A stretch of 64,000 nt of DNA from Bacillota bacterium (lineage in GTDB: Bacteria > Bacillota > Dehalobacteriia > UBA4068 > UBA4997): assembly GCA_021769035.1 (NCBI GenBank), contig JAETTP010000003.1, positions 3,010-67,009 on the forward strand, given 5' to 3'. The translations under genes were made by a program, and so were the position numbers. Below the pieces are notes generated by a model. The model saw only the letters and a program-made list of their open reading frames with translations, was not told the DNA's origin and searched no databases. Each line of letters opens with the position of its first letter. Position 1 is the stretch's first letter. Below, in pieces: positions 7,984-59,909 of this stretch.

Positions 7984-8009
7984 TTTCGCCCGCCCGGCCC
8001 CCTTTTCCT
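7984..8009 (-). promoter_or_regulatory. candidate sigma-H-type promoter of the spoIIA operon
   Basis: The minus strand reads AGGAAAA-N12-GGCGAAA, resembling RnAGGAwWW-N11-12-RnnGAAT. It sits about 40 nt upstream of the spoIIAA ATG. This is a motif match only. Confidence 0.35.
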
Positions 8010-8088
8010 GCGAAGAATTTTGACTAAGAATAAGTATTAATGGCTGATTTTAGGCTTATTTGGCTAATTTAGTCGGTTGTATATTGTT

Positions 8089-9471
8089 TCAGCAGCACAA
8101 ACCGCCCGGCCGCCGCTTGGCCCACTCGTAATAGCCCAAAAGGCAAGCCGCATTTAACAGCCAGGTTGCCGGGTATATCCAGGCCACCTTTTCCGGCACT
8201 GGCGCCACCGCCATAACCATAAGCAGCAACACCACCCGCATTACACACATATTAAACAGGGTCAGCGCCATTGGCTGCACCGCGTGGCCGGCCCCGCGCA
8301 GAGCGCCGGAAAGCAGCTCCACAAAAACGTAGATGAAATATAACGGGAAAGTTACCAAACCAATGCCGCGACCAATTTCCTGCACCGCCACATCCTTGTT
8401 AAAAATGCCAAAGAACAAATCGGAGCTGAGCACCAACATCAAGCCAATCAGCAAAGTTATGCCAACGCCTATTTGCAAGCCCTTGCGCACGCCCTGAAAC
8501 GCACGGCTCTCCTGCCCGGCCCCCAAATTTTGCCCCACATAGGTGGTTAGGGCCTGGCCCAAAGCCAAAATCGGCAGATAAATAAAATTTTCCACCTTAA
8601 AATAGGCCGTGAAAGCGGCAATATCCAACACGTCCATGCTATTAATCTGGGCCTGCACAATCAGATTGGAAAGCGTCGTTACCATTGCCTGAATGCCGGC
8701 CGGGATACCAATAGCAAAAATCTGCCAGCAAATCCGCGTTTGCAGGCGGATATGCCGAAATTGCAGGTGATAGGGCTCCTGCAGGCGACACAAATGCCAA
8801 ACCGTCAGGGCCGCCGCCGCGCTTTGCCCCACCAGCGTGCCGATAGCCACGCCGGCAATGCCCAGCGGCACCACCATCGTCAGCAGCGCGTTCAAAGCTA
8901 CGTTAATCAAACCGCCCACCAGCTGATAAAGCATTGGGGCCCGTGAATTACCCAAGGCCCGCAGCAAGCCAGCGCTGATATTATAGAAGATAATCGCCAT
9001 AATATCAAAAAAGTAAATACGCAAATAAACCAAAGCTGGCTCCATCACCTGCTCCGGCGTGTTCATCCAGCGCAGGAACCAGGGCGAACCCAACAGGCCA
9101 ATCAGCGTCAGCAGCACGCCGCCAATCAGGGCCAAACCGGCGGCGGCATGAATGGTTTTGTTAAGCATAGCCCGGTTGCGCGCACCAAATGCCCTGGCCG
9201 CAATTATGCTAACCCCAACGCCCAAGCCATTAAAAAAGCCGACCAGACAGGTAACCAAAAGGCTGCTGCTGCCCACCGCCACCGAGGCCTCGTTGTCTAA
9301 CAACTGGCCGACAAAGATTAAATCCACCGTGTTGTAAAGCTGCTGAATCAGGCTGCTGCCAAACAGTGGCAAAGCAAACAAAAACAACCCCCAGCTAATC
9401 GAACCCTCCAGCAAAATATTATGTTTATCCCGGTTTGTAGACTTCAAAGCGCGCCTCCTATTATCGTGCAT
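8089..9471 (-). CDS. MATE family efflux transporter
   Basis: 460 aa, about 12 TM segments, MATE-typical N-terminus (LLEGSI...LPLFGSSLIQQLYNTVDLIFVG). There is no clear SD, so the start is uncertain. Confidence 0.85.
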   Translation of the reverse strand: MHDNRRRALKSTNRDKHNILLEGSISWGLFLFALPLFGSSLIQQLYNTVDLIFVGQLLDNEASVAVGSSSLLVTCLVGFFNGLGVGVSIIAARAFGARNRAMLNKTIHAAAGLALIGGVLLTLIGLLGSPWFLRWMNTPEQVMEPALVYLRIYFFDIMAIIFYNISAGLLRALGNSRAPMLYQLVGGLINVALNALLTMVVPLGIAGVAIGTLVGQSAAAALTVWHLCRLQEPYHLQFRHIRLQTRICWQIFAIGIPAGIQAMVTTLSNLIVQAQINSMDVLDIAAFTAYFKVENFIYLPILALGQALTTYVGQNLGAGQESRAFQGVRKGLQIGVGITLLIGLMLVLSSDLFFGIFNKDVAVQEIGRGIGLVTFPLYFIYVFVELLSGALRGAGHAVQPMALTLFNMCVMRVVLLLMVMAVAPVPEKVAWIYPATWLLNAACLLGYYEWAKRRPGGLCC

Positions 9472-9645
9472 AACGCTGCTAAAAAAATTCGCTAATATTC
9501 TTATTTTTTTATAAAATAGGCTATTTTTTCCAATATTTCCTACAGTTTAATTATTATAATACTTTCATCTGAATTTAGCAAGTTTTTTTTAGATAATTTT
9601 GCCAGATTTAAGCAAATTTCTGCTAAAAACGTTTGTTTACGCAAA

Positions 9646-9677
9646 CAATCCCCCCAGCCAACCGGCCAGGGGGATTG
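9646..9677 (-). terminator. terminator hairpin downstream of hpf
   Basis: CAATCCCCC (9646-9654) pairs with GGGGGATTG (9669-9677). On the minus strand the stem is followed by TTTGCG. Confidence 0.6.
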
Positions 9678-9691
9678 CTAAATTCAACTTT

Positions 9692-10210
9692 TTATTCCGG
9701 CTGCAACAAGCCGTAATTTTCATCCTTGCGTTTGTAAACAATATTGATTTCATCGGTTTCCGCATTCACAAAAGCGAAGAAGCTGTGGCCCAAAAGCTCC
9801 ATCTGACTGATGGCCTCGTCCACATCCAAAGGCTTTTTATCAAAGTGCTTGGTACGCACCAGCTTTTGCTCGTTCGGCAGAGCCTCCAACTCCTGCAAAG
9901 ATGCTTTTTGGGCGTCCTTGCGGAAGCGTTTTTCCAAACGGGTTTTATGCTTGCGCACCTGGCGCTCCAGCTTATCCACGGCTTGGTCAATGCAAACATA
10001 CATATCCAGGCCGGAAACCTCGCTGCGCAGGATAACCCCATCAACATAGATGGTTACCTCCACCGTGTGCGTATCCTTAACCGCATCATGCAAAACTGAA
10101 ACGTCGTCCACGCCGCCCAGCATTTTGTCAAATTTACGCAGACGCTTTTCGGCATATTCACGCATTGCCGGCGTCACATCATTTTTTCTGGACCTTACAT
10201 TAATGTTCAT
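9692..10210 (-). CDS. hpf: ribosome hibernation promoting factor (long HPF)
   Basis: 172 aa with an N-terminal S30AE domain and a C-terminal dimerisation domain (VRTKHFDKKPLDVDEAISQMELLGHSFFAFVNAET). SD AGGAGGG lies before the ATG. Confidence 0.9.
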   Translation of the reverse strand: MNINVRSRKNDVTPAMREYAEKRLRKFDKMLGGVDDVSVLHDAVKDTHTVEVTIYVDGVILRSEVSGLDMYVCIDQAVDKLERQVRKHKTRLEKRFRKDAQKASLQELEALPNEQKLVRTKHFDKKPLDVDEAISQMELLGHSFFAFVNAETDEINIVYKRKDENYGLLQPE

Positions 10211-10511
10211 AAATCGTCCCTCCTGGTTACTCTATTAACAACCGAAAGCAGTTGTTAATATATTAATTATATTTTCAGGCGCAAAATCCTGCCAGACGGG
10301 CAAAAAGATTTACTTTTTGGGCAAAATTTCCCAATTTAAGCAGCCAAACAGCCGCACCGACATTTTTTAGCATATTTTTACACGGCTTTCCCCCAACAAT
10401 CCACAGGGCTTGCTTGTGGAAAATGTGGAAAAGGTTGTTGACAACTGACTGTAAGCCGCTTTTTTGAGGCAAATTTATACACAGACCAGCAAAAGGCGAG
10501 GCAATTCCTGC

Positions 10512-11417
10512 TTAATCGAGCGGAATGTAGCCGGCCTGTCGAATCGACTGCTTGCCGGCCTCCGACAAAATCCAGTGATAAAGCTTGCTCACCGCTCCCT
10601 GCTCAGTGGCCAAATCCTCGCTGCGCACCGCCAGATAATATTCGTTCAGCAGCGGATAACTGCCGTCGGCAATGCTTTCGTCGCTGGGCAGCACCCCGTC
10701 TACCGCCAAAAAGCGCAAGCCGGGCTGCTGATACATATAGGAAGCATAATAGAAAACGGAATAACCCAAAGCGTCGGCGCTATTGTTGTAGGAAGCCAGC
10801 TGTTCAATCAGACCGCCCATCTCAGCCGGCCGAAACTCCGTCGGCGCGTCCATCGGCTGCCGCTCCTGCATTAACAGCTTCATAAACAGGCTTTGGCTGC
10901 CGCTTTCCTCCGGCCGCTGAAAGGCCACAATCGGCAAATCCGCCCCGCCAACCTCGCTCCAGTTGGTAATCTCCCCAGTGTAAATGCCAATCAGCTGCTC
11001 CTGCGTCAGACTTTGCACCGGATTATCCTCATTGACGATAAACACCAGCGCGTCCCGGCCAATCGGCTCAATCGTCAGCTCGGTGCCAATTTCCGCCAGC
11101 TGCTGCTTGGTCACCTCCGCCGCCTCGTAAACCAGCAGCAGGTCAGCGTCCCCCTGGGCCAAAGCCAGCCAGGCGTCGGCCGTTTTGCGGCAACTGGTCA
11201 ACTGCTCCGCCTCCGCCAGGGAAATCCCCGTGACGTCCGCCATAATTTGGGCCATCATCGGCAAATTGGCAGTGGAACCATCCACCCGCGGATACTCCGC
11301 CAAACTCAGCAAAACCTCGCCGCTCGGCTCGGCAACCTGCTCCTGCTTTTGCTCATTGCAAGCCGCCAGAACGGCCGCGCAGGTCAACAACAAAATCACA
11401 GCCAAAAACTTTTTCAT
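10512..11417 (-). CDS. PstS-family (PBP-like) substrate-binding lipoprotein with no adjacent permease or ATPase genes
   Basis: 301 aa with a signal peptide and lipobox (LAAC). PstS-like motifs are DGSTANLP and VFIVNEDNPV..LT.EQL..IYTGEITNWSEVGG...I.AFQRPE.SGSQ. SD GGGAGG is present. The gene starts 46 nt after the last WG-repeat gene. Confidence 0.75.
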   Translation of the reverse strand: MKKFLAVILLLTCAAVLAACNEQKQEQVAEPSGEVLLSLAEYPRVDGSTANLPMMAQIMADVTGISLAEAEQLTSCRKTADAWLALAQGDADLLLVYEAAEVTKQQLAEIGTELTIEPIGRDALVFIVNEDNPVQSLTQEQLIGIYTGEITNWSEVGGADLPIVAFQRPEESGSQSLFMKLLMQERQPMDAPTEFRPAEMGGLIEQLASYNNSADALGYSVFYYASYMYQQPGLRFLAVDGVLPSDESIADGSYPLLNEYYLAVRSEDLATEQGAVSKLYHWILSEAGKQSIRQAGYIPLD

Positions 11418-11463
11418 ATTCAGTACCTCCCATTTTTTTAATTCTCTTCTTTAATCTTATTAT

Positions 11464-13029
11464 TTAATCTTCCATATCCTTAAAAATTGTTTCCTGAACA
11501 ATCCATTCGCCCTTATCATTCATCAAACCCTGGCTAAATCCCTGCTGCACCCAAAAGATATTTTCCCCAAGATAACGAACATATTTCAGGCCGCTTAAAA
11601 TCACCCGGCCCTGGCCGTCCAACACCTCCCAGAAGCTTTGCCCGGCAGCAGTTTCATAGCGGCCCCGAAAGTAACCGGAGGGCTCCGCACCGGCATAGAT
11701 AATTCCTATGTTCATATACTTCTGCAACAACTCCGGCGGCAGCTCAGGCTCGGCAAAAAGTTTGCTGGATAACCAATTGCATTCAGCCGCTCCGGTCAGC
11801 TCATGCTCCGCCTGGCTCAGCAAACGGCCCCAAGCGTCGTAAATGAGGTGGCGGCAAATTACCGGCTTAAAATCCTCCTGCTCCGGGTTCCAGGCCGTAA
11901 AGTAAATTTCCTCCACCCAAACCTGATTATCGACAATTCTGGCATCCCGCTGCAACCCGTCAACCGCCGGCCATTGCTGCTTGGCAAGCAAAAGCCCGTT
12001 GGTATTGTAAATATCCCGATCATTGTAGAAAAGCCGCATTTCCCGGCTTAAATTCATTAGGTTGCCGTCCAGCCAACGGCCCTGCAAATCCATTAAACCG
12101 CTGCGCATATCCCCCCAGCCCTGCGTCACCGCCAGCACGCCGGCGCCTAAATAATCCACCAGGCTTAAATTAGCCAGCCGCACCCGGCCCTGCGCGTCCA
12201 AAATATCATAGCGCAGACCGCCCTTTTCGTTGCTATAATGGGCCAGGTAAAAGGGCAAATCCGCGTATCTAAAACCGCCCAGCCAAAACAGTTCAAAATA
12301 ATCCTGCTCTGTTGTCAAGGGCTGCCCCTGCCAGTCGTATATATCCAGATAATTGGCCCTGTCCAGCCGCGTCGCCGGGTTAAAATCGTCATAGCTAACC
12401 GCCACAAAACCAGCCGCCGGAATAACACTGAGCCGCAGCGTGTCGTCATAACCCTGGCGCAACAGCTGCCGCTGATTATCCACCAGCAGATTTCCCGCGA
12501 TGTCCAACAGCTGATAGCGGCCCTCCGTTTGCAGCAAATCCACCACAAACAGGCCGTTTTGCCAATCCCCATTCGTTGGTGCATAAAATTCAAGGCAGTT
12601 AGGATTGGGCACGGCCGCTTCAATATCCACGCTATGTAGCAGCTGGCCGTAGCAATCGTAAAAACGGAAACTGCGGCCGCTGATACGCAAATCTGCTTCA
12701 AAATCCCGATAAAAATTTTCCCGCCAGCCAAAATCATCTTCAAACACCTGGCCGGCCTCCACCTGAAAACGCTGCTCCGGCGGCAGCACAAAATGATTTT
12801 CCACCTGTAACACGGTTTTGCCATTCGGCAAAATATAGCTTGAAACCTCCTGCCCAGGAAAGTAATAATCAGTCTCCGCCGCGGCAATCAGCCGGCCGTC
12901 AGTGTTAAAAACACCCAACGGCGTTTGTAACAGCGCCGGCTCCTCCGTTTTACCGCAGCCGGCCAGCCCCAGCAAAATCAGCAACAAGGCCGGCAGCAGA
13001 CAAAGCATTGTCAACCACCTTTTCCGCAT
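11464..13029 (-). CDS. WG-repeat lipoprotein paralog P1 (521 aa, fused unit)
   Basis: MRKRWLTMLCLLPALLLILLGLAGC signal and lipobox. Recurring modules are FRFYDCYGQLL, YQLLDIAGNLLV and VLDGQGRVILSGL...GLMNDKGEW. The C-terminus is ...KDMED. Confidence 0.85.
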   Translation of the reverse strand: MRKRWLTMLCLLPALLLILLGLAGCGKTEEPALLQTPLGVFNTDGRLIAAAETDYYFPGQEVSSYILPNGKTVLQVENHFVLPPEQRFQVEAGQVFEDDFGWRENFYRDFEADLRISGRSFRFYDCYGQLLHSVDIEAAVPNPNCLEFYAPTNGDWQNGLFVVDLLQTEGRYQLLDIAGNLLVDNQRQLLRQGYDDTLRLSVIPAAGFVAVSYDDFNPATRLDRANYLDIYDWQGQPLTTEQDYFELFWLGGFRYADLPFYLAHYSNEKGGLRYDILDAQGRVRLANLSLVDYLGAGVLAVTQGWGDMRSGLMDLQGRWLDGNLMNLSREMRLFYNDRDIYNTNGLLLAKQQWPAVDGLQRDARIVDNQVWVEEIYFTAWNPEQEDFKPVICRHLIYDAWGRLLSQAEHELTGAAECNWLSSKLFAEPELPPELLQKYMNIGIIYAGAEPSGYFRGRYETAAGQSFWEVLDGQGRVILSGLKYVRYLGENIFWVQQGFSQGLMNDKGEWIVQETIFKDMED

Positions 13030-13032
13030 TGC

Positions 13033-14775
13033 TTAATCCTCCTCCTCTGGCAACGGCTCCTGATAAAGCCATTTGCCCTGCCTATCAATCAGGCCGCGGT
13101 AGCCGCCCTGCTCCACCTGCAACAAGCCGCCCCAGGCCGTCGGGTAAATGTTCTGCCCGGCCCAAATCTGCTGCATATCCTCGTCCAGCAGGTAGGCGCT
13201 GTTCTCCTCAGACAAGGCCCGGCGCACCTCGGCTTGATAGCCGATTATCCGGCCGTCAGCTTCGTCGACAATCGGAGAAATCAGGCTGTAGTCCTGCTCC
13301 AGCGTCACCGGCTGCCCGTCCAGCCGGTAAACGTCGGCGTGCTCCTCAAAATAATACCAATCGTCTTCGTCCGGCTCTTGGGCATAAAGAACATAATTTA
13401 CAATGACGTAATCATTGGAAAGATACATGGTAGCATAGCAATCGCCCCATTCCTCCGGCTGGCAAACCGGCTTTTCGGCCAGCAAATTCCCGTAAGCGTC
13501 GTAAACCTGATATTTGCCCTCCGTGTCCAATCTATCAATTAGGAAACAGCTTCGCTGCAAATCGCCATTTGGAGCAAAATCGAACTCAATATCGCCCCAA
13601 ACCCCGTTCATCGGGAAAGTAACCTGGTGCAGCTGCTGCCCGGCGAGGTCGTAAAAAGTAAGCAGATTTTCCACCTGAAGCAAATCACCATTACCATCGC
13701 GCCGCTCTGCGTCATGCACGCGCAAGGCGGACATTAAATAAAGTGGCTGATATTGATAATCCGCCAAAATCGTATACTGCTCATAATCCGCGCTGGGGCC
13801 TAAAACCGGCTGACCGGAAGCGTCGATGATATAATATGCCTGGTTGTCCCGTAAATAGAAAAGCTGACCGCTCTCCACGCCAGACACCCTGGCCGCCGCC
13901 TGCCCCGGCTGGAAAACAAACTCGCCCTGATTGTTAATTACCCCGCGCAATTCGCCTTTTTGCACCCAAAACATGTCGCCGCCAAGATAATAAAGCTCGT
14001 CCACATCGGCAATAATCACCTGGCCCTGCTTATCCAGCAGGCTGCACGGCCCGATTGAGGAGGAACTGCCGGCCCTAAAGTAACCGTCATAATAATAGCT
14101 GCCATAGCCGTAAGCCAAACCGAACGGATAATCCACGTAAAAAATGTTAGGATAAGCCTCGTCAAGCGCATACGGCCGCCACTGCCAATCATAAACATCA
14201 GCCAGGCTGTCGCCCGTGCCGTCCTTATTATACCACACAACATTGACCACCAAAAAGTTATCGCTCAAGCAGAGAGTAACCAACGTATCAAAGTAATCTG
14301 CCGGCATTGCCACCGCTTTTTCCACCAGCACCTTGCCGTCCAAATCCAACACCTGATATTTCCCCTCGGTTTGCAGCAAATCACGAATAATCAGACTTTT
14401 AGCAAAATCGCCGTCCGGCGCAAAGTAAAAGCCGCTTTCGCCGGAAAGCTGCAAGCTTTTCAGCAGCTGCCCCTGCAAATCGTAAAACTGATACTCGCTT
14501 TCCAGCATTTCGGGATACTCGTCGCCCTCCGGGTCAGTATAGGTACTATTGAAACTCAGAATATAGCGTTGTTTACCCTGGTTATCCTCCAAAATGCTAT
14601 AATATTCATTCGGCCGCCCCGGCCCCAGCACCCGCTCGCCGTTGGCGTTTACGCAGGTGTTGCCAAATCCCCAAACGTGGGGCTGCTCCGCCACGTCCAC
14701 CTCCGCTTTCGGCTCGCCGCAGCCAGCCAAGCCCAGCAGCAACACAAAAGATAACAAAAGCCAAATTTTACGCAT
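13033..14775 (-). CDS. WG-repeat lipoprotein paralog P2 (580 aa, two full units)
   Basis: MRKIWLLLSFVLLLGLAGC lipobox. The module set occurs twice: YQFYDLQGQLL/YQVLDLDGKVLVE, then TFYDLAGQQL/YQVYDAYGNLLAE. It ends GLIDRQGKWLYQEPLPEEED. Confidence 0.85.
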   Translation of the reverse strand: MRKIWLLLSFVLLLGLAGCGEPKAEVDVAEQPHVWGFGNTCVNANGERVLGPGRPNEYYSILEDNQGKQRYILSFNSTYTDPEGDEYPEMLESEYQFYDLQGQLLKSLQLSGESGFYFAPDGDFAKSLIIRDLLQTEGKYQVLDLDGKVLVEKAVAMPADYFDTLVTLCLSDNFLVVNVVWYNKDGTGDSLADVYDWQWRPYALDEAYPNIFYVDYPFGLAYGYGSYYYDGYFRAGSSSSIGPCSLLDKQGQVIIADVDELYYLGGDMFWVQKGELRGVINNQGEFVFQPGQAAARVSGVESGQLFYLRDNQAYYIIDASGQPVLGPSADYEQYTILADYQYQPLYLMSALRVHDAERRDGNGDLLQVENLLTFYDLAGQQLHQVTFPMNGVWGDIEFDFAPNGDLQRSCFLIDRLDTEGKYQVYDAYGNLLAEKPVCQPEEWGDCYATMYLSNDYVIVNYVLYAQEPDEDDWYYFEEHADVYRLDGQPVTLEQDYSLISPIVDEADGRIIGYQAEVRRALSEENSAYLLDEDMQQIWAGQNIYPTAWGGLLQVEQGGYRGLIDRQGKWLYQEPLPEEED

Positions 14776-14778
14776 TTT

Positions 14779-15663
14779 TCAATCCTCCAAACTCTCCTTA
14801 AACACCCACTCGCCAGCCGCGTTCATTATACCCTGCGCCTCTCCTTTTTTCACCGTAAACAAATCATCACTGCAATTCCGCACCTCAACCAAGCCGTCAA
14901 GCACCACCTGACCTTTAGCGTCCAAAACGTCGTAAACAACCTCGCCTTGCGGGTTTCTATATTGAGCCTGAAAGTAAGCGCTGTCCCCTTGGGTCGTAAA
15001 ATCATAAAGCGGATAAACAAAATTGTACCCCTTGTCCTTATGCAACGGCTGGCCGCTAAAATCATAAAGATAGGCAAACTGGCAGCTATTATACAAATTA
15101 TCATAAAGATAAATATTCGCTACGACAAAGTCCTCGCCAACCCATACATAAGGCCCGGAGAAATCCACATTGTAATCAGCCGGTATTTTTTCCTCAACCA
15201 GCAGGCTGCCGTCCGCCCGCAGCAGTTGAAAGCGCCCCTGCGTGTTCAACATATCCAACAAAAGCACCGCTTTGCTTAAATCCAGACTTTGCGGCAAAGC
15301 AAAGTGAACGCTGGATTCATACTCAAATTCCCGGCTGCCGCCGGCGTCGTCTACCTCAAAGCATTTCAACAACTCACCTTTTTTGTCGTAAACCGAAAAT
15401 TTATAACCGACAACTATATAATTACCGTATTCGTTAAAGCGATGATAATCGTAAACACTTTGGCTTTTCAGCAGATAAATCTGCTTGCCCTGCGCGTCGC
15501 ACAGCACGGAATAAATCCCGTCGGTGTCCTTAAACACCACGCCGTCAGTGGTTATATAACCATAATAATATGGCAAAACAGCAATTTCCTTTTCCGCCTT
15601 GCCGCAGCTGGCCACCCCCAGCAGAAGCAAGACCACAACAAACATTATCACCAATTTCCGCAT
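14779..15663 (-). CDS. WG-repeat lipoprotein paralog P3 (294 aa, single unit)
   Basis: MRKLVIMFVVVLLLLGVASC lipobox; FSVYDKKGELL, FQLLRADGSLLVE, YDVLDAKGQVVLDGL, GIMNAAGEWVFKESLED. Confidence 0.85.
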   Translation of the reverse strand: MRKLVIMFVVVLLLLGVASCGKAEKEIAVLPYYYGYITTDGVVFKDTDGIYSVLCDAQGKQIYLLKSQSVYDYHRFNEYGNYIVVGYKFSVYDKKGELLKCFEVDDAGGSREFEYESSVHFALPQSLDLSKAVLLLDMLNTQGRFQLLRADGSLLVEEKIPADYNVDFSGPYVWVGEDFVVANIYLYDNLYNSCQFAYLYDFSGQPLHKDKGYNFVYPLYDFTTQGDSAYFQAQYRNPQGEVVYDVLDAKGQVVLDGLVEVRNCSDDLFTVKKGEAQGIMNAAGEWVFKESLED

Positions 15664-15746
15664 TGCCTAATCCTCCAAACTGTCAAAAATGCTCTCCTTA
15701 AACAGCCACTCGCCCTGCTCGTTCATCAGGCCGCGGCTGAAACCCT
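15604..15746 (-). repeat. junction cassette copy A (P4 C-terminus, stop, P3 signal peptide)
   Basis: Ungapped by-eye alignment with 16522-16664 gives about 19 mismatches in about 143 nt (about 87% identity). The gene interiors are far more diverged. Confidence 0.7.
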
Positions 15747-16581
15747 GCTCCACCAAAAACCGGTCCGGCCCCAGGCAATCCACCGCGCGCAGGCCGCTCA
15801 GCAAAACCTGCCCTTGGCCGTCCAAAACATCATAAAGCGGATAATCGTTGGGACTTAAATAATAGGCCCGCAGATACTTGTTTTTCTGAAATTCTGTTCC
15901 CTCCCAGTAGCCCAGGTCAACCATATAAAGATAATCCTTGGCCAATTCTACCGGCTGCAAATCACGGTCATACAAATCGCAATAATAATGCTCCTGATAA
16001 TCGTGTCCATAAATATGCCCCTGCACCCAAACCGCTTCATCATTCATACAAAGATTAAACGCGGTTTGCCAAACGTCAGCCGCCGCCAGCGGCCGCTCCA
16101 GCAGCACATTGCCGTCCAAATCCAGCAGCTTATATGTTCCGTCCGCTTTTACAAGATCCTCCAAAAGCAGGCTCCGCTGCAAATCGCCGTCCGGTGAAAT
16201 CTGATAATCAAACCGAGGCGCGGCCATTTTGACGGATTTAAGCAGCTCACCCGCCGTATCATAAACACTAAAGCGGATAGACAGCACCAAGGGCTGGCCG
16301 TAGGCATCCAGCTGTGTTTCCGAACGCTCATATTCCGAGGCCAAAATATACCGCTGCCGCCCCTCGCAGTCCCGCCAAATTTGATAAGTATATCCCGGCG
16401 CGTCCGGCGGGCAGATAACCTCCCCCGCGCTGTTGATGATTCCGTTACCATAGGGGATTAATATCGGTGATTTTTCTTCATTATCAAGCACATTAGCGCT
16501 TTGAGGTTGCGCGGCCTCAAAGCAGCCGGCCAGCCCCAGCAGAAGCAAGGCTATACTAAACATTATCACCATTTTACGCAT
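15667..16581 (-). CDS. WG-repeat lipoprotein paralog P4 (304 aa, single unit)
   Basis: MRKMVIMFSIALLLLGLAGC lipobox; FSVYDTAGELL, YKLLDLDGNVLLE, YDVLDGQGQVLLSGL, GLMNEQGEWLFKESIFDSLED. Confidence 0.85.
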   Translation of the reverse strand: MRKMVIMFSIALLLLGLAGCFEAAQPQSANVLDNEEKSPILIPYGNGIINSAGEVICPPDAPGYTYQIWRDCEGRQRYILASEYERSETQLDAYGQPLVLSIRFSVYDTAGELLKSVKMAAPRFDYQISPDGDLQRSLLLEDLVKADGTYKLLDLDGNVLLERPLAAADVWQTAFNLCMNDEAVWVQGHIYGHDYQEHYYCDLYDRDLQPVELAKDYLYMVDLGYWEGTEFQKNKYLRAYYLSPNDYPLYDVLDGQGQVLLSGLRAVDCLGPDRFLVEQGFSRGLMNEQGEWLFKESIFDSLED

Positions 16582-16664
16582 CGTTTAATCCTCCAAACTA
16601 TCAAAAATGCTCTCCTTAAACAACCACTCGCCTTTGTCATTCATCAGGCCGCGGTTGAAACCCT
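16522..16664 (-). repeat. junction cassette copy B (P5 C-terminus, stop, P4 signal peptide)
   Basis: Partner of 15604-15746. Both contain ...AAACATTATCACCAxTTTxCGCAT-NNN-stop-ATCCTCCAAACTxTCAAAAATGCTCTCCTTAAACAxCCACTCGCC (plus-strand reading). Confidence 0.7.
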
Positions 16665-18333
16665 TACGCACTGCAAAAACACTCTGGCCCAGATACTCAA
16701 CCTGCTGCAAATCGCTCAGGCACAGCCGGCCGCGCTCATCTAACACATCAAACCACCACTGCCCATTCGGCTGCTCGTAGCCGGCTTCAAAAAAAATCAC
16801 TTCTTCTTCAACATTCGGATAAAGCCACCAGTCCCAAGCATAAAGGTTGTTCAAATAGGCATATTCTCTGGGCATCGGCAACGGCTTGCCCAGCCAATCG
16901 TAAACAGTTACATAATCGTGCGGGGTCTGCAATTCCTCATCAAATTCCGAATGTTTCACGGCCACAAAATAATCCGTCAAAAACAAATCAGCAACGCCTA
17001 ATTTATATGGCTGCTCAGCCTCCCGCTCCAGCCAAAGCCGGGCCCGGCAATTCAACAGTCCATATTTACCCAACGGCGTAAGAACCAAATTGGCTCCCGT
17101 ATATGTCAGCGGCAGCTGCCAAAGCTGCCGGCCGTGAGCATCATACAAAGTGAGCTCGCAAGCAGTGGGCTGCGGCCGGCTCCACGCCCAATCAGTGTTC
17201 TCAGGATAAAAATATTCCGTAGCCAGCACATATTTATCGCCCAAAATATCCCAACCAATATCCTGACCGTCCGGCACCATATCTTTATTTTCCGCAATCA
17301 GCTTGCCGTAGGTGTTGTAAACATCGCCATTGTAATAAAAAACCTGCAAAGGCCGGTTCAAGCTCCACAAGTCCGGCTTCAGCGGCCGGCCCTGCAAATC
17401 CGCCAGGCCGCAGGTCAAATCACCCCAGCCCTGCTGCAGCTCCAGCACCTGCTTGCCGATAGGCTCAACTCTCAGCAAATTTGCCAAATGCACCCGCCCC
17501 TTGCCGTCCAGCAGGTCATAGCGGTTCCGCCCCTTTTCATTGCGGTAATGCGCCTTGTAAAGTGATGTTCCCGCCAGCTGCTCCAACTCGTCGTAAGCCT
17601 GCGGCATAGGCAGCGGCCGGCCCTGCAAATCGTACACATCAAGCTGCTTGCAGGAGTTGTAGGCCGCCAGCATATCGTAAAGGGCGTAATTCAAGGCCAC
17701 AAATTCCTCGCCCAGCGCCAAATCAATATGCGCGCCCGTCCTTAAATCCGCCGGCTGCATTGGCTGGCCGGGCGGCGTCAGCTGCTTTTCCACCAGCAAA
17801 TTGCCGTCAATATCCAGCAGCTGATATTTCCCCTCCGTTTCCAGCCGGTTCACCAAAAACAGGCTTTTCTGCAAATCACCGTCCGGGGCAAAATAAAAGT
17901 CCAAATTGCAAGGATGGGGAAGCGCCGCGTCAATCTGCACCGCGTGTTGAAGCCGGCCGCGGCAATCGTAAAAGCGGAAGCTGCGGCCGGTTATCCGGCT
18001 GTCCAGATCATATTTCATAATTATTTCATTAAACGGCTGCGGACCGGTCACTGGGTCCGCCGAGGGCCCGCCTAAATTCACCAGCCAGCGCTGCTGCTCC
18101 GGCAGCACGTAATCATCCTCAATCAGCAGAGCGTAACACTGGCGGCCGTTTTGGTCGCAAAGGATTTTCGCCTCCTGATCTGGCTGCACGTCCGTAATCC
18201 GCAGGCCCTCCGTGTTGAAAATATCCTCCTGATAGACCAGCAAACCCGGCTCCGCCGCCTGCTGCTCATTACAACCGGCCAGCCCCAGCAGGGCCAGCAA
18301 CAGCCAACAGATCACTATCACCAATTTACGCAT
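16585..18333 (-). CDS. WG-repeat lipoprotein paralog P5 (582 aa, fused units)
   Basis: MRKLVIVICWLLLALLGLAGC lipobox; FRFYDCRGRLQ, YQLLDIDGNLLVE, then a second unit ending GLMNDKGEWLFKESIFDSLED. Its N-terminal half is closest to P1. Confidence 0.85.
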   Translation of the reverse strand: MRKLVIVICWLLLALLGLAGCNEQQAAEPGLLVYQEDIFNTEGLRITDVQPDQEAKILCDQNGRQCYALLIEDDYVLPEQQRWLVNLGGPSADPVTGPQPFNEIIMKYDLDSRITGRSFRFYDCRGRLQHAVQIDAALPHPCNLDFYFAPDGDLQKSLFLVNRLETEGKYQLLDIDGNLLVEKQLTPPGQPMQPADLRTGAHIDLALGEEFVALNYALYDMLAAYNSCKQLDVYDLQGRPLPMPQAYDELEQLAGTSLYKAHYRNEKGRNRYDLLDGKGRVHLANLLRVEPIGKQVLELQQGWGDLTCGLADLQGRPLKPDLWSLNRPLQVFYYNGDVYNTYGKLIAENKDMVPDGQDIGWDILGDKYVLATEYFYPENTDWAWSRPQPTACELTLYDAHGRQLWQLPLTYTGANLVLTPLGKYGLLNCRARLWLEREAEQPYKLGVADLFLTDYFVAVKHSEFDEELQTPHDYVTVYDWLGKPLPMPREYAYLNNLYAWDWWLYPNVEEEVIFFEAGYEQPNGQWWFDVLDERGRLCLSDLQQVEYLGQSVFAVRKGFNRGLMNDKGEWLFKESIFDSLED

Positions 18334-18336
18334 TGT

Positions 18337-19296
18337 TTAATCCTCCAAGTCGGCAAATTGCGATTCCTGGTAAATCCAGTTGCCCTGCGCGTCCATCAGG
18401 CCGCGATTGAACCCCTGCTGCACCACAAAAACACTATCCGAAAAATGCTCAACAAGATTCAGACCGGAGATAAGCACTTGCCCGTTACTATCCAACACAT
18501 CATATAAGAACTGGCCCTGCGGCCCCTCATAAGCAGCCACATAGTAATCCGAAACACAGTTATTATATTCATCATACACATTATAGAAATAACCATATTT
18601 ATGCGCCGACTCCAAAGGCTGGCCGCTCAAATCATAGAAGAAATTGCCGCCCTGCATATTATTCTCATCACTGTAAGCATTATAGTTATACAAATCGTAA
18701 ACAATGTTCATAAAATTGTCCGCCAGCGTCAGGTTAGCATAACCTTGCTGCCATTGGCTAATTTCCGCCGGCTGCAAAACCTGCTCGGTCAGCAGCAGGT
18801 TGCCGTCACAATCCAACACCTGCAAGCTGCCCTCCGTTAGCAGACGATTCACCAAAATTCGGCTTTTTTCCAAGCTGCCGTCCGCCGCAAAGTAAAAATT
18901 AACAGTGTCGTTCACATTGCCCTCCGCCTGAACGGCCAGCTCCTTTTGCAGCCCTCCCTGCACATCGTAAATGCGGAAAGTGCAGCCCAGCAGCAAAGCC
19001 TCGCCATAGGAATTTTGCCGCTCCGGGTCAAAGTGATTTTCTGTTTCCAGCACGTAACGCTGACGGTTTTGCGTATCCAGCAAAATCTGATATTCATTTT
19101 CACCGGGCGGGAAAAGCAAATCCCCCTCGGTCGTAATCACACCATCATAGTAGTATAGCAGCGCCGGCCTCTCAGCCTGATTACCCAAATCGGCCGCTGG
19201 CTTATCCTCGGCGCAGCCCGCCAGCCCAAGGCCTAAAAGCAAAACCAGCCCCAACAGATAAGCCATTTTTTTCCCGTTAGCAAACTCTCTTTCCAT
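18337..19296 (-). CDS. WG-repeat lipoprotein paralog P6 (319 aa, single unit; first gene of the operon)
   Basis: MEREFANGKKMAYLLGLVLLLGLGLAGC lipobox; FRIYDVQGGLQ, LQVLDCDGNLLLTE, YDVLDSNGQVLISGL, GLMDAQGNWIYQESQFADLED. The start could instead be Met11 (19266). Confidence 0.8.
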   Translation of the reverse strand: MEREFANGKKMAYLLGLVLLLGLGLAGCAEDKPAADLGNQAERPALLYYYDGVITTEGDLLFPPGENEYQILLDTQNRQRYVLETENHFDPERQNSYGEALLLGCTFRIYDVQGGLQKELAVQAEGNVNDTVNFYFAADGSLEKSRILVNRLLTEGSLQVLDCDGNLLLTEQVLQPAEISQWQQGYANLTLADNFMNIVYDLYNYNAYSDENNMQGGNFFYDLSGQPLESAHKYGYFYNVYDEYNNCVSDYYVAAYEGPQGQFLYDVLDSNGQVLISGLNLVEHFSDSVFVVQQGFNRGLMDAQGNWIYQESQFADLED

Positions 19297-19412
19297 ATTA
19301 AACCAGCCCCTTTACATATTAAATTAACTTTTAATGTAGCATTCGGCATTTAGAGCGGTATACCTCCTTTTCCCTTATTATTTCCTTACAAATTAATAAT
19401 TGCCGATTTTTA

Positions 19413-19442
19413 TTGCAAATTGGGGTTAAGATGTGATATAAT
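19413..19442 (+). promoter_or_regulatory. sigma-A-type promoter of metNIQ
   Basis: TTGCAA (19413-19418), an 18-nt spacer, then an extended -10 TGaTATAAT (TATAAT at 19437-19442). It lies about 48 nt upstream of the metN ATG. Confidence 0.6.
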
Positions 19443-19489
19443 ATAAGTTACGTTTAACAAAAAATCAAGAAAGGCGGTGTCTATCACCA

Positions 19490-22258: not shown

Positions 22259-22314
22259 ACATTTCCGCCTATATATGTTATGCTTATTAAAAACAGTAAA
22301 GGTGGTTGTTTATT

Positions 22315-23406
22315 ATGACGCTGAAAATTTACCGCACCGCCGCCCTTTGCCTGCTCTGCCTGCTAATTTGGGCCACGCCCGTCTATGCAGTGGACGAATA
22401 CGGCAATGTTTATCCGCAGGAAATTGCCCCGGCCCTCACCGACCCGGCCACTGCCTCCGCCGAAAGCAAGGCCCTGCTGCAAAGCATAACCCTGCCGGCC
22501 AGCCTGGGCATCACCATTCCTCACATCGACACCGGCAAAATCCACGACACAATGCCACTTAACGGCCCCAACCCGGATTTACGGAGGTTGGGATATACGG
22601 AAACCCAAATGCTTAATATGGATTACGGCGACCACCGAAACATTATGAATCAGCAGCCGCTCAGCGAGCAACAAATCAGGCTTTACGCCTCGGAAAAGCT
22701 GCCGGCTGAAAAGCTGCGTCAAATGACCTACGGCGAATACATTGAAGCTTACAGCAAAATTACCGAGGAGGCCAACCTGCCCACGCCGGAACAGCAGGCC
22801 CAATTTGCCGCCCGCAACATCACGCTGCCGGACGCCAACCGCCTTTGCAAGGATTTCCACCAATATGAGAATGTGCTAGCTCAGGAGGACGCGATGCTGA
22901 AAGAGTACTTGGAGGCTTACTACCAATTTGACATTGATTTTGTGCTGAGCCGCTGCCAAATGCCGGTTAAAGCCACAGTTGCCACCGCCCCCCAAACCAG
23001 CGCTATCTGCCCGGTTTACACCAGCGACGGCCAAAAAATTGCCGAGGGCAAGATGTTAAACGGCGTTACCTGCCTGCCGATGCGCACCCTGTTTGAGGCC
23101 TGCGGAGCCACCGTGAACTGGCACGCCGGCAGCAAATCCATTCAGGCCCACACGGAAAGGCGGGACCGTTGGCTGGATATTTCCCTGGCCGAGCAAACCG
23201 CCCAGCTGCGGGTGGAGCTGCCGGAGCCGGACGCGGAGGGCTACAGCCAATATAAAATCACCCAGCTAGCTTTGGATTTTAACTATTGCTTTATGGAAAA
23301 CGGTTCCACTTACCTGCCTCTGCGCACCGTCGCCGAGGCCCTGGCGGTGGAAGTGCAATGGAACGCGGCAGAAAAGAAAGTGATATTGCAACTGCCCCAA
23401 AAGTAA
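22315..23406 (+). CDS. secreted protein with C-terminal copper-amine-oxidase-N-terminal-like (stalk) domain
   Basis: Start moved to ATG 22315, with SD AAAGGTGG 9 nt upstream. The signal peptide ends VYA-VD. The C-terminus has two segments, LPMRTLFEACGATVNW and YLPLRTVAEALAVEVQWN, typical of that domain. Confidence 0.7.
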   Translation: MTLKIYRTAALCLLCLLIWATPVYAVDEYGNVYPQEIAPALTDPATASAESKALLQSITLPASLGITIPHIDTGKIHDTMPLNGPNPDLRRLGYTETQMLNMDYGDHRNIMNQQPLSEQQIRLYASEKLPAEKLRQMTYGEYIEAYSKITEEANLPTPEQQAQFAARNITLPDANRLCKDFHQYENVLAQEDAMLKEYLEAYYQFDIDFVLSRCQMPVKATVATAPQTSAICPVYTSDGQKIAEGKMLNGVTCLPMRTLFEACGATVNWHAGSKSIQAHTERRDRWLDISLAEQTAQLRVELPEPDAEGYSQYKITQLALDFNYCFMENGSTYLPLRTVAEALAVEVQWNAAEKKVILQLPQK

Positions 23407-23479: not shown

Positions 23480-25144
23480 TTATTTAATCTTCATCATATC
23501 CCCACTAACGCTGACTGTTGCGCCCAGCATATCAAAAAGGTCTGCCGGCACGTAAATGCCGTCCTGCTGCCACTCTGGGGCCGCGCCAAAACTGGTGGGA
23601 GCGGACATACCAACCATTCCGGGAATGGCCGTAGCATAGTAATAGCTGTCCAGCCCAACCGTCAGATTAGTCTGAATTTCCCCATTGGTCAGATGAATGG
23701 TCTGGGTTGCAGCTTCCCAATCAACGTCGAAACCAAGCTCAGTTGCCACAATGCGCACCGGCACCATCGCCACGCCATTGGTGTAATGCACCTTATCAAG
23801 CAAAACCATATCGCTCAGCAACAGTTTGCTAGCCCCTGCCAATTTAGTTGTATCAGTATCAGCCGGAGCCAAGGGAAGTTCGCAAACCTCCGGTGCGCCA
23901 AAAACGTGCTTAAAATTGGTGGCTGTGGTCTGCCCCGGATAGCTTTCCGCTACCACGTCGTACCAGGCCAGGAACAAGGAGCCCTCCTGCAAGCCAACGC
24001 AATCCGCGGTTTCACAGTCATGCACAGCCTTAACGTCTATCCACAAACCGCCGTTATCCACCAGAACCCGGCCGTCCTGGATTTGCTCCACGGTGAAAAG
24101 CCCTGCCGGCGCATCATCGCCCACATTCACCAGCACGTAGTTCAACCAGCTTTGCGGCGGCAGGCTAAAAGTGGTTGCCGCGTTGTGGCCGGCCACAACT
24201 TTTTCGCCCGGCTTAACCGCCGTCCAATCAACCACATTGCCGGTTTGCGCGTCCACCAGCAGGGCTGCATTCTCGCCCTCCGTGGCAAAGTTCAGCTGCA
24301 AATCGCCCAACCCCTCGCCGCGTTCCACCAGCAGATAATGGTTATCGTCCTCATTAACAATTTCCTTAACCACAGCCTGTGTCGCCACCACGGCAACTGC
24401 CGGATTCACAGCGGCAAAATCATCGTAATCTGCCGCTGCGTCCGTCGTCTGCAAATCAGCGGCCGGCGGAATCATCGCCTTGTTAGCCGTTGCCTGGCCC
24501 GGATAGGACAATGCCACAATATCATACCAGGCTAAAAAGCGTTCACCAACCTTAACTTCTTTTGCTTCACCAATCCAAGCGTCTTTAGGCAACCGCACCA
24601 ACAGGCCGCCGTTATCGGTGGTTACCACCAAATCGCCGCTGACATCAGCCTCCACCGCCTCCGCTGTCCACAACTTCGCCGGCGTGCCCTCGTCGACGTC
24701 GGCAAGCAGCAAATACAAACGGCTCTGCGGCGGAATGGAACGAGTCATCGCCTGGCTAAAATAAACATAAACCCGATCGCCAACGGCAATATCCTCAGGG
24801 TTCAGAGTTTTCGCGTCCTTGTTGGACATCAACAGAGAATCCGCAGCAATATTCAAACGAATTTCCTGTCCGGCATAATCGCCGGCCTCCGGCTTCACTA
24901 CGATAAAGGCGGAATCCACCTCATCTGGAGCAAGCTCTGTCACCTCAGCAAAACCGCTCAACATTGCCACCTGCACCTCCTGTTGCTCAACCACAGCCAC
25001 CGTGCCATCGGTAAAGGCCGGCAATTTCTGCTGCGGCAGGTTATCCGCGACCTTCAGCGTGTTATCGGCAGCCAGCGCTACGCTACCAAATGTACCTATC
25101 ACAGCTATCGTCATCGCTGCACAAAAAATTCTAATTTTCTTCAT
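23480..25144 (-). CDS. secreted protein with an internally duplicated domain pair and a C-terminal copper-amine-oxidase-N-like domain
   Basis: Start moved to ATG 25144 (MKKIRIFCAAMTIAVIGTFGSVALA), with SD GGAGG. An internal duplication is visible: DNGGLLVRLPKDAW...FLAWYDIVALSYPGQATA versus DNGGLWIDVKAV...FLAWYDVVAESYPGQTTA. The C-terminus contains VPVRIVATELGFDVDW. Confidence 0.7.
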   Translation of the reverse strand: MKKIRIFCAAMTIAVIGTFGSVALAADNTLKVADNLPQQKLPAFTDGTVAVVEQQEVQVAMLSGFAEVTELAPDEVDSAFIVVKPEAGDYAGQEIRLNIAADSLLMSNKDAKTLNPEDIAVGDRVYVYFSQAMTRSIPPQSRLYLLLADVDEGTPAKLWTAEAVEADVSGDLVVTTDNGGLLVRLPKDAWIGEAKEVKVGERFLAWYDIVALSYPGQATANKAMIPPAADLQTTDAAADYDDFAAVNPAVAVVATQAVVKEIVNEDDNHYLLVERGEGLGDLQLNFATEGENAALLVDAQTGNVVDWTAVKPGEKVVAGHNAATTFSLPPQSWLNYVLVNVGDDAPAGLFTVEQIQDGRVLVDNGGLWIDVKAVHDCETADCVGLQEGSLFLAWYDVVAESYPGQTTATNFKHVFGAPEVCELPLAPADTDTTKLAGASKLLLSDMVLLDKVHYTNGVAMVPVRIVATELGFDVDWEAATQTIHLTNGEIQTNLTVGLDSYYYATAIPGMVGMSAPTSFGAAPEWQQDGIYVPADLFDMLGATVSVSGDMMKIK

Positions 25145-25254
25145 ATTAATATTACCTCCATTATTTTCGTCTTCTCGTTTTTTGCACATTCTAATATTAA
25201 TACCCGACAAGTTGCCGTTTTGCCACAGCTAAATTTATTTTTTTCAAAATTTTT

Positions 25255-59834: not shown

Positions 59835-59909
59835 GCGCCTGTAGCTCAGTGGATAGAGCGTCGGCCTCCGGAGCCGAAAGCGTAGGTTCGATTCCTATCA
59901 GGCGTACCA
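59835..59909 (+). tRNA. tRNA-Arg (anticodon CCG), CCA encoded
   Basis: I folded the cloverleaf by hand. The acceptor is GCGCCTG/CAGGCGT with a G1-U72 wobble. The D arm is GCTC-AGTGGATA-GAGC. The anticodon arm is TCGGC-CTCCGGA-GCCGA (anticodon CCG). The T arm is GTAGG-TTCGATT-CCTAT. The discriminator is A, followed by CCA. Confidence 0.9.

Follow-up and report, generated by a model that had tools for sequence, protein, structure and literature searches.

The window analysed here, a 64,000-nucleotide (nt) stretch of a Bacillota genome, carries on its minus strand (10512-19296) seven consecutive open reading frames (ORFs) for lipoproteins of 319, 582, 304, 294, 580, 521 and 301 amino acids (aa), designated g1 to g7 in the order of transcription. 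The first six encode an array of paralogs related to the uncharacterised Pfam family DUF5046, and the seventh encodes a divergent PstS-like binding protein of the PBP_like_2 family (hereafter the PBP). The two families are near-obligate genomic partners, with the PBP gene directly after the DUF5046 gene or genes in 37 of 39 assessable loci, a count that includes near-duplicate loci and is not one of independent cases. The reading favoured here, to which we assign a probability of about 0.45 with its adaptor logic included, is that a single conserved phosphoryl-binding subunit serves a set of variable propeller proteins that dock onto it.

Each of the seven proteins begins with an M(R/K/E)K-type signal peptide, in which a short basic start and a hydrophobic stretch lead to a lipobox (LAGC in five proteins, VASC in g4 and LAAC in g7) with its cysteine inside the first 28 residues, and on the strength of these two features all seven are predicted lipoproteins. 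The spacers within g1-g6 measure exactly 3 nt each, and 46 nt separate g6 from g7. A preliminary description of this DNA had reported seven lipoprotein genes, with these lengths for the first six and 46 nt before the seventh, and the ORFs, each with a lipobox, agree with it; its interpretation as a dedicated lipoprotein operon is supported. The genes are as follows.

g1, 18337-19296, minus strand: 319 aa, one-unit DUF5046 lipoprotein and first gene of the operon, recognised from its ORF, Pfam match and lipobox LAGC.
g2, 16585-18333, minus strand: 582 aa, DUF5046 lipoprotein with two units (two unit-profile matches), each half of which aligns to g1 by BLASTP.
g3, 15667-16581, minus strand: 304 aa, one-unit DUF5046 lipoprotein (ORF, Pfam, BLASTP, unit profile).
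g4, 14779-15663, minus strand: 294 aa, one-unit DUF5046 lipoprotein (ORF, Pfam, BLASTP, unit profile), without a counterpart in the close relative L010.
g5, 13033-14775, minus strand: 580 aa, two-unit paralog (BLASTP 1e-18 to 1e-37, two unit-profile matches).
g6, 11464-13029, minus strand: 521 aa, DUF5046 lipoprotein with two units, the second shortened to ~196 aa.
g7, 10512-11417, minus strand: 301 aa, divergent PstS-family (PBP_like_2) lipoprotein, the conserved partner of the array.

The linkage was established from three directions. A species-level scan with one genome per species recovered 13 loci, in metagenome-assembled genomes (MAGs) labelled Peptococcaceae, Candidatus Avidehalobacter, Oscillospiraceae, Lachnospiraceae, Family XIII and 'uncultured Clostridia', and all 13 have a g7-type gene directly downstream of the last DUF5046 gene on the same strand, locus L022 in the form of fusions. 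Approached in reverse, through five g7 homologs of 62-80% identity, a DUF5046 gene is found directly upstream in five of five cases, and two of these loci (L025, L026) have unrelated neighbourhoods. A metagenome scan seeded on the peptide GLMDxxGNW[IL] alone returned 23 loci, of which 21 could be assessed after omission of L045, with only 153 nt of downstream sequence, and L051, placed outside the family by hidden Markov model; the PBP gene follows immediately in 19 of the 21. ORF clustering of 15 loci gives no third gene conserved with the pair outside the clade that shares metNIQ-hpf synteny, and the ABC ATPases seen at divergent loci are unrelated and lie kilobases from the pair. The carriers are uncultured gut Clostridia, with mouse, rabbit and chicken gut assemblies among the sources. 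The tie between array and PstS-like gene that the preliminary description had drawn is thus borne out across lineages, fused lineage included, and does not reflect a strain-specific duplication.

In one lineage the partners have become a single polypeptide. Locus L022, from a Family XIII MAG, encodes three tandem fusion proteins of 727, 748 and 778 aa (7997-14825), in which a non-lipoprotein membrane anchor is followed by an Ala/Glu-rich coiled coil of ~100 aa, a PBP_like_2 domain and a C-terminal DUF5046-like domain. Such fusions are rare, forming only two full-length clusters in a collection of 5.8 billion proteins, and are classical evidence that two families act together. A physical association of the DUF5046 and PBP families is the part of the proposal that we regard as probable.

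The partner itself has kept much of what characterises a phosphate-binding protein. g7 matches Pfam PBP_like_2 (PF12849) with 105.5 bits (E = 5e-30, cut-off 27) over profile positions 13-266 of 267 and reaches solved PstS structures with E values of 1e-20 as a single sequence and 2e-29 as a subfamily profile, confirming that a PstS-like gene does lie 46 nt downstream of the array, as first described. Its scores fall below the cut-offs of both NCBIfam models, TIGR02136 (ptsS_2; 126.4 bits, cut-off 206.6) and TIGR00975 (20.3 bits, cut-off 205). The structure of Clostridium perfringens PBP-1 defines nine phosphate ligands (PMC5381212), which were mapped by hand onto g7 from the profile alignment.

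Ser11 of PBP-1: S48 in g7, identical.
Thr12 of PBP-1: T49 in g7, identical.
Ser13 of PBP-1: A50 in g7, side chain lost, backbone contact possible.
Ser41 of PBP-1: T79 in g7, conservative.
Ser59 of PBP-1 (the Asp56 position in E. coli PstS): Y97 in g7, changed.
Arg125 of PBP-1: R168 in g7, identical.
Ser129 of PBP-1: S172 in g7, identical.
Gly130 of PBP-1: G173 in g7, identical.
Thr131 of PBP-1: S174 in g7, conservative.

Seven of the nine ligands are kept, five of them identical and two conservative, and none of the nine equivalent positions varies among the 16 sequences of a subfamily alignment, fusions included, indicating that the oxyanion site of g7 is largely intact. A loss of the PstS Ser-loop, suspected from a reading by eye, was ruled out by the profile alignment. 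Judged from these residues, the odds that g7 binds a phosphate-type group are about even.

The six array proteins are true paralogs, as their mutual BLASTP matches attest (E = 1e-14 to 1e-75 at 26-40% identity). They comprise nine units of ~270-300 aa, two in each of the three long proteins, according to BLASTP of the halves and a unit profile, so that the six paralogs and roughly nine units counted in the preliminary description stand, and the ordered motifs listed there are visible in the unit alignment. Five proteins pass the cut-off of 25 bits for DUF5046 (PF16465), namely g1 (50), g2 (31.4), g3 (39.7), g4 (25.4) and g6 (28.8); g5 has no match to the model, yet is a clear paralog by BLASTP and unit profile. 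The resemblance to WG (KWG) repeats noted earlier holds in part: the C-terminal portion is related to WG repeats, but no Pfam family named KWG occurs among the matches of the six proteins to E = 1, and the best match is DUF5046. WG_beta_rep (PF14903) is approached in the window by g5 alone, below threshold at 23.5 bits against a cut-off of 25.6, and is passed by the relatives L016 (34.5), L017 (28.5), L035 (27.6) and P0177 (32.7 bits); several family members pass both models. NCBIfam gives no match for g1-g6. That the array is not part of a known pathway, as first proposed, is in keeping with profile searches that lead to a named but uncharacterised family.

An exhaustive search of 1.84 billion representative proteins with the unit profile places DUF5046 in context. 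It yields 603 relatives at E <= 1e-3, of which 34 reach E <= 1e-30, making this a small family, and its farthest matches are long, classical WG-repeat proteins (E ~1e-11 to 1e-13) that score 208-459 bits with WG_beta_rep. From these profile relationships, DUF5046 is best understood as a compact domain of WG-type beta-hairpin repeats that has diverged. Among 125 listed representatives of at least 250 aa, on which the counts of lipoboxes and tails rest, 99 have a lipobox. The literature searched contains no mention of DUF5046; under 'WG repeat' it offers only eukaryotic GW182 and Argonaute work, and WG_beta_rep or PF14903 is named only in a structure-prediction survey that lists it among repeat families without known structure (PMC8078820). 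Sequence and profile searches found no solved structure for DUF5046 (best E = 0.4).

For g1, AlphaFold2 gave a model from an alignment of 18 rows with mean pLDDT 85 and pTM 0.78; it is all-beta, with 22 strands spanning residues 45-312; the last seven residues lie outside the strands, and residues 311-319 average a pLDDT of 67. Foldseek searches of this model against the Protein Data Bank (PDB) and predicted viral structures return only propellers (prolyl-oligopeptidase propeller, WD40, NHL, PQQ, CylK and Vps10p types) at probabilities near 1, although TM-scores do not exceed 0.37 and rmsd values are 8-20 A. On the model, the DUF5046 unit is predicted to be a propeller-like domain without a close solved relative.

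The junctions between array genes give further insight into how these proteins are made and what is conserved in them.

g1/g2 junction, 18331-18348, minus strand: TTG GAG GAT (L-E-D), stop, 3 nt, ATG, reading ttggaggattaaaca ATG; by sequence, GGAGGA in the g1 tail codons is the Shine-Dalgarno sequence of g2.
g2/g3 junction, 16579-16596, minus strand: overlap of tail codons and Shine-Dalgarno sequence, inside the junction repeat D2, over which it is 87% identical to the g3/g4 junction for 143 nt.
g3/g4 junction, 15661-15678, minus strand: tail codons overlap the Shine-Dalgarno sequence.
g4/g5 junction, 14773-14790, minus strand: tail codons overlap the Shine-Dalgarno sequence.
g5/g6 junction, 13027-13044, minus strand: GAG GAG GAT, that is E-E-D, with tail codons overlapping the Shine-Dalgarno sequence.

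All five internal junctions read ttGGAGGAttaaNNN-ATG, the upstream protein ending in L-E-D (E-E-D in g5), and the placement of the Shine-Dalgarno sequence within the upstream tail codons, together with the 3-nt spacers, argues for tight translational coupling. The protein features most conserved in the family fall in the same region, a strand (K/R)GF..GLMD..GNW followed by a tail S.F..L.D at the stop codon. The strand lies within the last 40 residues in 91 of the 125 representatives, and D or E is the terminal residue in 86 of 125. Every array protein closes with such an acidic tail. The tail is still acidic where the next gene begins 46-417 nt away with its own ribosome-binding site, which implies conservation as protein and not merely as DNA. 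Internal units of two-unit proteins retain the strand and do not have the tail. Across the nine units of the window, conservation peaks at residues 141-160 and 261-319 (g1 numbering).

Outside these regions the array changes quickly, both in size and in sequence. Orthologs of g1 with 45-62% identity occupy the same slot in relatives, in the order metNIQ, array, PBP, hpf and spoIIA, and this metNIQ-hpf slot contains 1, 2, 3, 5, 6 or 7 array genes and always one PBP gene, in agreement with the earlier suspicion that copy number varies between lineages.

Array size 1: L004, L013, L014, L015, L023, L024.
Array size 2: L012.
Array size 3: L007, L056.
Array size 5: L010.
Array size 6: the window.
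Array size 7: L001, L002.

Rates of nonsynonymous (dN) and synonymous (dS) substitution were compared between the window and its nearest relatives, L001 and L010.

metN, metI, metQ: protein identity 95-96%, dN 0.02, dN/dS 0.03-0.06, dS 0.44-0.61.
PBP (g7): protein identity 89-90%, dN 0.065, dN/dS 0.11, dS about 0.6.
Array genes (L001 orthologs): identity 48-84%, dN 0.08-0.46, dN/dS 0.20-0.32, dS 0.4-1.8.

By dN, the array genes diverge 4-20 times faster than the flanking genes (0.02), and the PBP is conserved. The same relation is seen at wider distances, where the PBP remains 62-88% identical as the DUF5046 proteins drop to 23-48%. L010 lacks close orthologs of g4 and g5; paralogs served for the comparison there, and the values of these two genes are more extreme for that reason.

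Strain-level sequences touch on the same region. A PBP at 98% identity is encoded on four contigs, each from its own sequencing run, the accession numbers of the runs being adjacent. L052, L053 and L054 (each 1-105), apparently products of a single study, have a common first base that lies within the repeated QQGFSQGLMN motif of the final array gene, whereas the remaining contig is a short piece starting with the PBP gene. The last tail here is KETIFADMAD as against QETIFKDMED in the window, and the spacer is shorter than the window's. The shared start inside that motif indicates that short reads fail to assemble across the array, and public assemblies probably capture too little of its strain-level diversity. 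In one MAG (L003:16227-19429), two array genes are each broken into a pair of ORFs (187+368 and 390+119 aa) and X residues occur in some ORFs, so that either array decay or assembly error may be at work.

In the mechanism proposed here, g1-g7 constitute one translationally coupled operon, whose products would assemble into a two-part lipoprotein complex tethered to the membrane outside the cytoplasm. g7 would supply the single conserved PstS-derived subunit, most likely still clamping phosphate or a phosphoryl-type oxyanion because most of the phosphate-coordinating residues are kept. The products of g1-g6 would be interchangeable partner subunits, all-beta propeller-like domains built from WG-type beta-hairpin repeats, each docking on the shared g7 via its conserved C-terminal strand and acidic tail, with the fast-diverging remainder of the propeller surface engaging differing external targets. 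These targets would probably be of host, dietary or cell-wall origin and phosphorylated or anionic in nature, and g7 would then hand its ligand to a transporter encoded elsewhere or report the ligand. Related PBP domains often carry SLH anchors to the cell wall and so act as surface modules independent of a transporter, a use in keeping with this proposal. A bolder version, which we consider unlikely, describes an undescribed binding system in which a PstS-derived lipoprotein, freed from its ABC transporter, has become the common core for WG-propeller 'specificity' lipoproteins that plug in by the tail S-x-F-x-x-L-x-D-COOH; the terminal acidic group, or a modified tail serine, would perhaps occupy the old phosphate site, so that the partner is the 'ligand' and target recognition has moved to the propellers.

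Several observations weigh against this mechanism. The PBP gene is absent at L035, where a VanY gene takes its place, and at L050, a marginal member of the family. Genes for Pst transport adjoin the pair at only one of ~50 loci (L046), and phosphoesterase genes occur near the module at two loci only (L025 and L035). The position that sets selectivity in PstS (Asp56 in E. coli, Ser59 in C. perfringens) is a bulky Tyr in g7, and the subfamily has gained the invariant residues R121, W83, Y223, Y224, M228 and Y229, partly within a 5-residue insertion. Y97 and these new invariants suggest a ligand other than free phosphate, such as a phosphoryl-type or other anionic group attached to something bigger. 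AlphaFold2 predicts g7 with low confidence (pLDDT 64, domain 2 under 50), and the contact between g7 and an array protein is one that we infer. Inside arrays, the overlapping ribosome-binding site partly explains the conservation of the tail. The mean dN/dS of the array genes (0.18-0.37 over L001 and L010) is below 1 and so does not demonstrate diversifying selection. Lastly, the PBP gene of one lineage, seen in three MAG assemblies (L007:12287-13234, L008:2375-3322 and L011:13249-14196), has an in-frame TAG at the position of g7 Gln184 (LLMQ becoming LLM-stop). In that lineage the sequence past the stop is still conserved, the three array genes are intact, and of 16 genes nearby 3 end normally in TAG; the change could reflect read-through, recoding or a recent pseudogenisation.

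The strongest competing explanation, although it too seems improbable, is a variable envelope array, in which the DUF5046 lipoproteins diversify to escape phage, host immunity or competitors and the PBP is a structural or export companion, not the receiver of a ligand. The excess of divergence over the flanking genes and the one to seven copies in a single slot are what such an array would show. The dS of g1, g3 and g4 (1.0-1.8) also exceeds that of the flanks, which points, as far as substitution rates can, to older alleles, allele exchange or paralog replacement and away from divergence in place. The junctions, comprising tail, spacer and next signal peptide, are the most similar DNA between paralogs and are plausible substrates for unequal crossing-over and hence for copy-number change. 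The strain assemblies that break within the array, with a different last tail and spacer beside a 98%-identical PBP, fit as well. Recent gene conversion between paralogs was considered and rejected, since the best DNA repeat is the 143-nt tract at 87% and long near-identical tracts are absent. The dN/dS values given above argue against this explanation, and the hardware of phase variation is missing: there are no inverted repeats around the promoter region, no invertible promoter or silent cassette, and only three trivial two-copy tandem repeats in place of simple-sequence tracts in 9.3 kb. No PADLOC defence model matches any of the seven proteins at E <= 0.001; extended to E 0.01, the search gives one chance-level match, of g5 to a type I specificity subunit (13 bits, E = 0.0085). 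The 'variation module' of the preliminary description is only partly supported, by fast divergence and copy-number change but not by dN/dS or phase-variation hardware. Lipoproteins of Gram-positive bacteria are located on the outer face of the membrane, beneath the wall, and this is the predicted location of the array proteins; the earlier label 'surface-exposed' is not shown, and exposure beyond the cell wall is unproven. A variable array also leaves unexplained why its PBP partner, with a phosphate site, is invariable and why the two are fused in L022.

A role in envelope biogenesis or maintenance is somewhat less likely still. Here the PBP would bind the phosphates of wall polymers (teichoic acids or lipid-linked precursors) and the propellers would scaffold wall enzymes, possibly with a function in sporulation or germination. 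The nearest PBP-domain relatives without a DUF5046 partner, at 30-37% identity, are proteins with SLH wall-anchoring domains; VanY directly follows the DUF5046 gene at L035, a Peptidase_S11 gene (D-Ala-D-Ala carboxypeptidase family) lies upstream in L026, PG_binding_1 proteins are encoded in L023 and L052, and within the window's clade metNIQ flanks the module on one side and hpf/spoIIA-sigF on the other. These wall-gene neighbours are not conserved across lineages, however, unlike the DUF5046-PBP pair, and the SLH-PBP relatives have no DUF5046 neighbour in the one lineage examined. Fast divergence and one to seven copies would also be unusual in core envelope machinery.

Enzymatic phosphate scavenging is doubtful. 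Beta-propeller phytases exist, and DUF5046 propellers could be hydrolases of that kind, with the PBP capturing released phosphate for a remote Pst transporter. The retained oxyanion site of g7 would suit this role, as would three neighbourhoods. At L046 (1416-7210), on a metagenome contig, 210 nt separate the pair from a complete pstS-pstC-pstA-pstB-phoU-response regulator operon downstream. At L025 (5006-7999), two metallophosphoesterase genes, one of the YmdB type, lie on the same strand directly upstream of the pair, in an otherwise unrelated neighbourhood, and at L035 a type I phosphodiesterase is encoded 2 kb downstream. Against enzymatic activity, the invariant residues of the unit alignment are G, Y, L and the hairpin D, with no conserved polar cluster resembling an active site, and neither phytase nor phosphatase appears among the top 50 Foldseek matches of the g1 model. 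The rarity of Pst adjacency likewise tells against it, and evolution this fast, or the loss of half a domain as in the second unit of g6, is rare in enzymes. The canonical PstS of L046, separate from the pair's PBP, looks circularly permuted relative to the Pfam model.

That g7 is simply an ordinary phosphate-uptake PstS beside an unrelated paralog array is very improbable: although its homologs are auto-annotated 'phosphate transport system substrate-binding protein' and its fold family and most ligand residues agree with PstS, coincidence is contradicted by the linkage across changing neighbourhoods, by the fusion and by translational coupling, g7 scores far under both NCBIfam PstS cut-offs, and L046 has its own canonical pstS beside pstCAB. 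The 64-kb window contains no pstC, pstA or pstB, as had been described, and the PBP is an 'orphan' in having no transporter, but not in lacking a partner, since DUF5046 is its obligate gene partner.

Comparison with known systems defines what is distinctive in the pairing of a conserved PBP with variable propellers. Relative to PstS of Pst ABC transporters, the closest solved example being C. perfringens PBP-1 (PDB 4Q8R/4GD5; PMC5381212), g7 shares its predicted lipoprotein nature, the PBP_like_2 domain, with a profile alignment spanning nearly its whole length, and identical or conservatively replaced residues at seven of the nine phosphate-ligand positions. It differs in its sub-cut-off scores, its Tyr at the selectivity position, its additional invariant Arg, Trp and Tyr residues with the aromatic insertion and the absence of pstCAB partner genes; a DUF5046 protein, in place of a permease, is its constant gene partner. 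The array proteins resemble others of the uncharacterised DUF5046 and WG_beta_rep families in that five of six paralogs pass DUF5046 and the unit profile extends to classical WG proteins. The latter are long repeat arrays of 680-1460 aa, whereas the unit here is a compact ~270 aa, and the array proteins further differ in their lipobox, in the acidic tail conserved at their C terminus and in the PBP gene that is their obligate neighbour. Solute-binding proteins whose partners are not transporters but, for example, sensor kinases or chemoreceptors are reviewed in PMC8050422; g7 resembles them as a periplasmic-type binding protein that has a dedicated protein partner and no adjacent transporter. 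In contrast to those partners, the ones of g7 are lipoproteins without a transmembrane signalling domain, and there are as many as seven divergent copies of them. Neither a kinase nor a cyclase nor a chemoreceptor emerged as a conserved neighbour of the pair from ORF clustering of the 15 loci.

The SLH-anchored PBP_like_2 proteins of Firmicutes are, like g7, extracytoplasmic and, in the one lineage examined, have neither a transporter gene nor a DUF5046 gene alongside; they differ in carrying SLH in place of a lipid anchor and are uncharacterised too. They include a large uncharacterised set of 560-980 aa (P0287-P0319) that combines SLH with PBP_like_2, some members also having serpin or SBP_bac_3 domains. 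In one lineage, a conserved 137-aa ORF and a Peptidase_M28 gene stand directly upstream of the SLH-PBP gene (L059:7001-8707). Tandem families of paralogous lipoproteins serve surface variation in bacteria such as Mycoplasma and Borrelia. The present locus shares with them a same-strand array of divergent lipoproteins, copy-number differences between lineages and fast divergence, but it lacks phase-variation repeats, an invertible promoter and silent cassettes and forms one co-translated operon with an invariant partner gene.

Upstream of g1, the operon adjoins metNIQ, which is transcribed divergently.

Intergenic region g1-metN, 19297-19489, no strand assigned: shared with the divergent metN; it must hold the promoter of the operon.

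Promoter-like sites on the minus strand are found at 19468-19440 and 19406-19377, and an alignment of the region from six relatives shows conservation only of the metN promoter TTGCAA-N18-TATAAT on the plus strand and its ribosome-binding site. The metN promoter is of the sigma-70 type and is preceded by a TG. The leader of metNIQ is short, and within 19297-19489 no Rfam element, S-box and T-box included, scores at or above the gathering threshold. At the other end, no convincing intrinsic terminator was found after g7.

The surroundings are housekeeping in character, and the array is divergent from metNIQ, as had been reported. The window encodes spoIIAA-spoIIAB-sigF, a MatE gene, hpf, metNIQ, fakA, minCDE, ftsW/rodA, a penicillin-binding protein, the his operon and nucleoside catabolism, and the G+C content of the array genes (0.49-0.53) is like that of the remaining window. 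Two neighbouring genes, 22306-23406 on the plus strand and 23480-25210 on the minus strand, encode Cu_amine_oxidN1 (copper amine oxidase N-terminal-like) domains and keep the same position in relatives. A lone tRNA gene (59835-59906, plus strand) is the only Rfam match of the window. GC skew is below zero in nearly every 2-kb bin from 1 to 64000, and the cumulative skew runs steadily downward, which places the whole window on one replication arm, with the majority of genes on the minus strand.

Both superfamilies are very large and already known, and DUF5046 exists as a Pfam entry; no description of the pairing, its fused form, the one-to-many architecture or the tail conserved in the array proteins was found in the literature searched. 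Linkage, fusion, one-to-many partners and the oxyanion site together provide a first functional handle on DUF5046, and they indicate that proteins of the PstS type can function apart from the Pst transporter. Should the propellers prove to be specificity subunits for phosphorylated material from host or diet, the locus would mark a strain-variable trait of nutrient capture or recognition in the gut.

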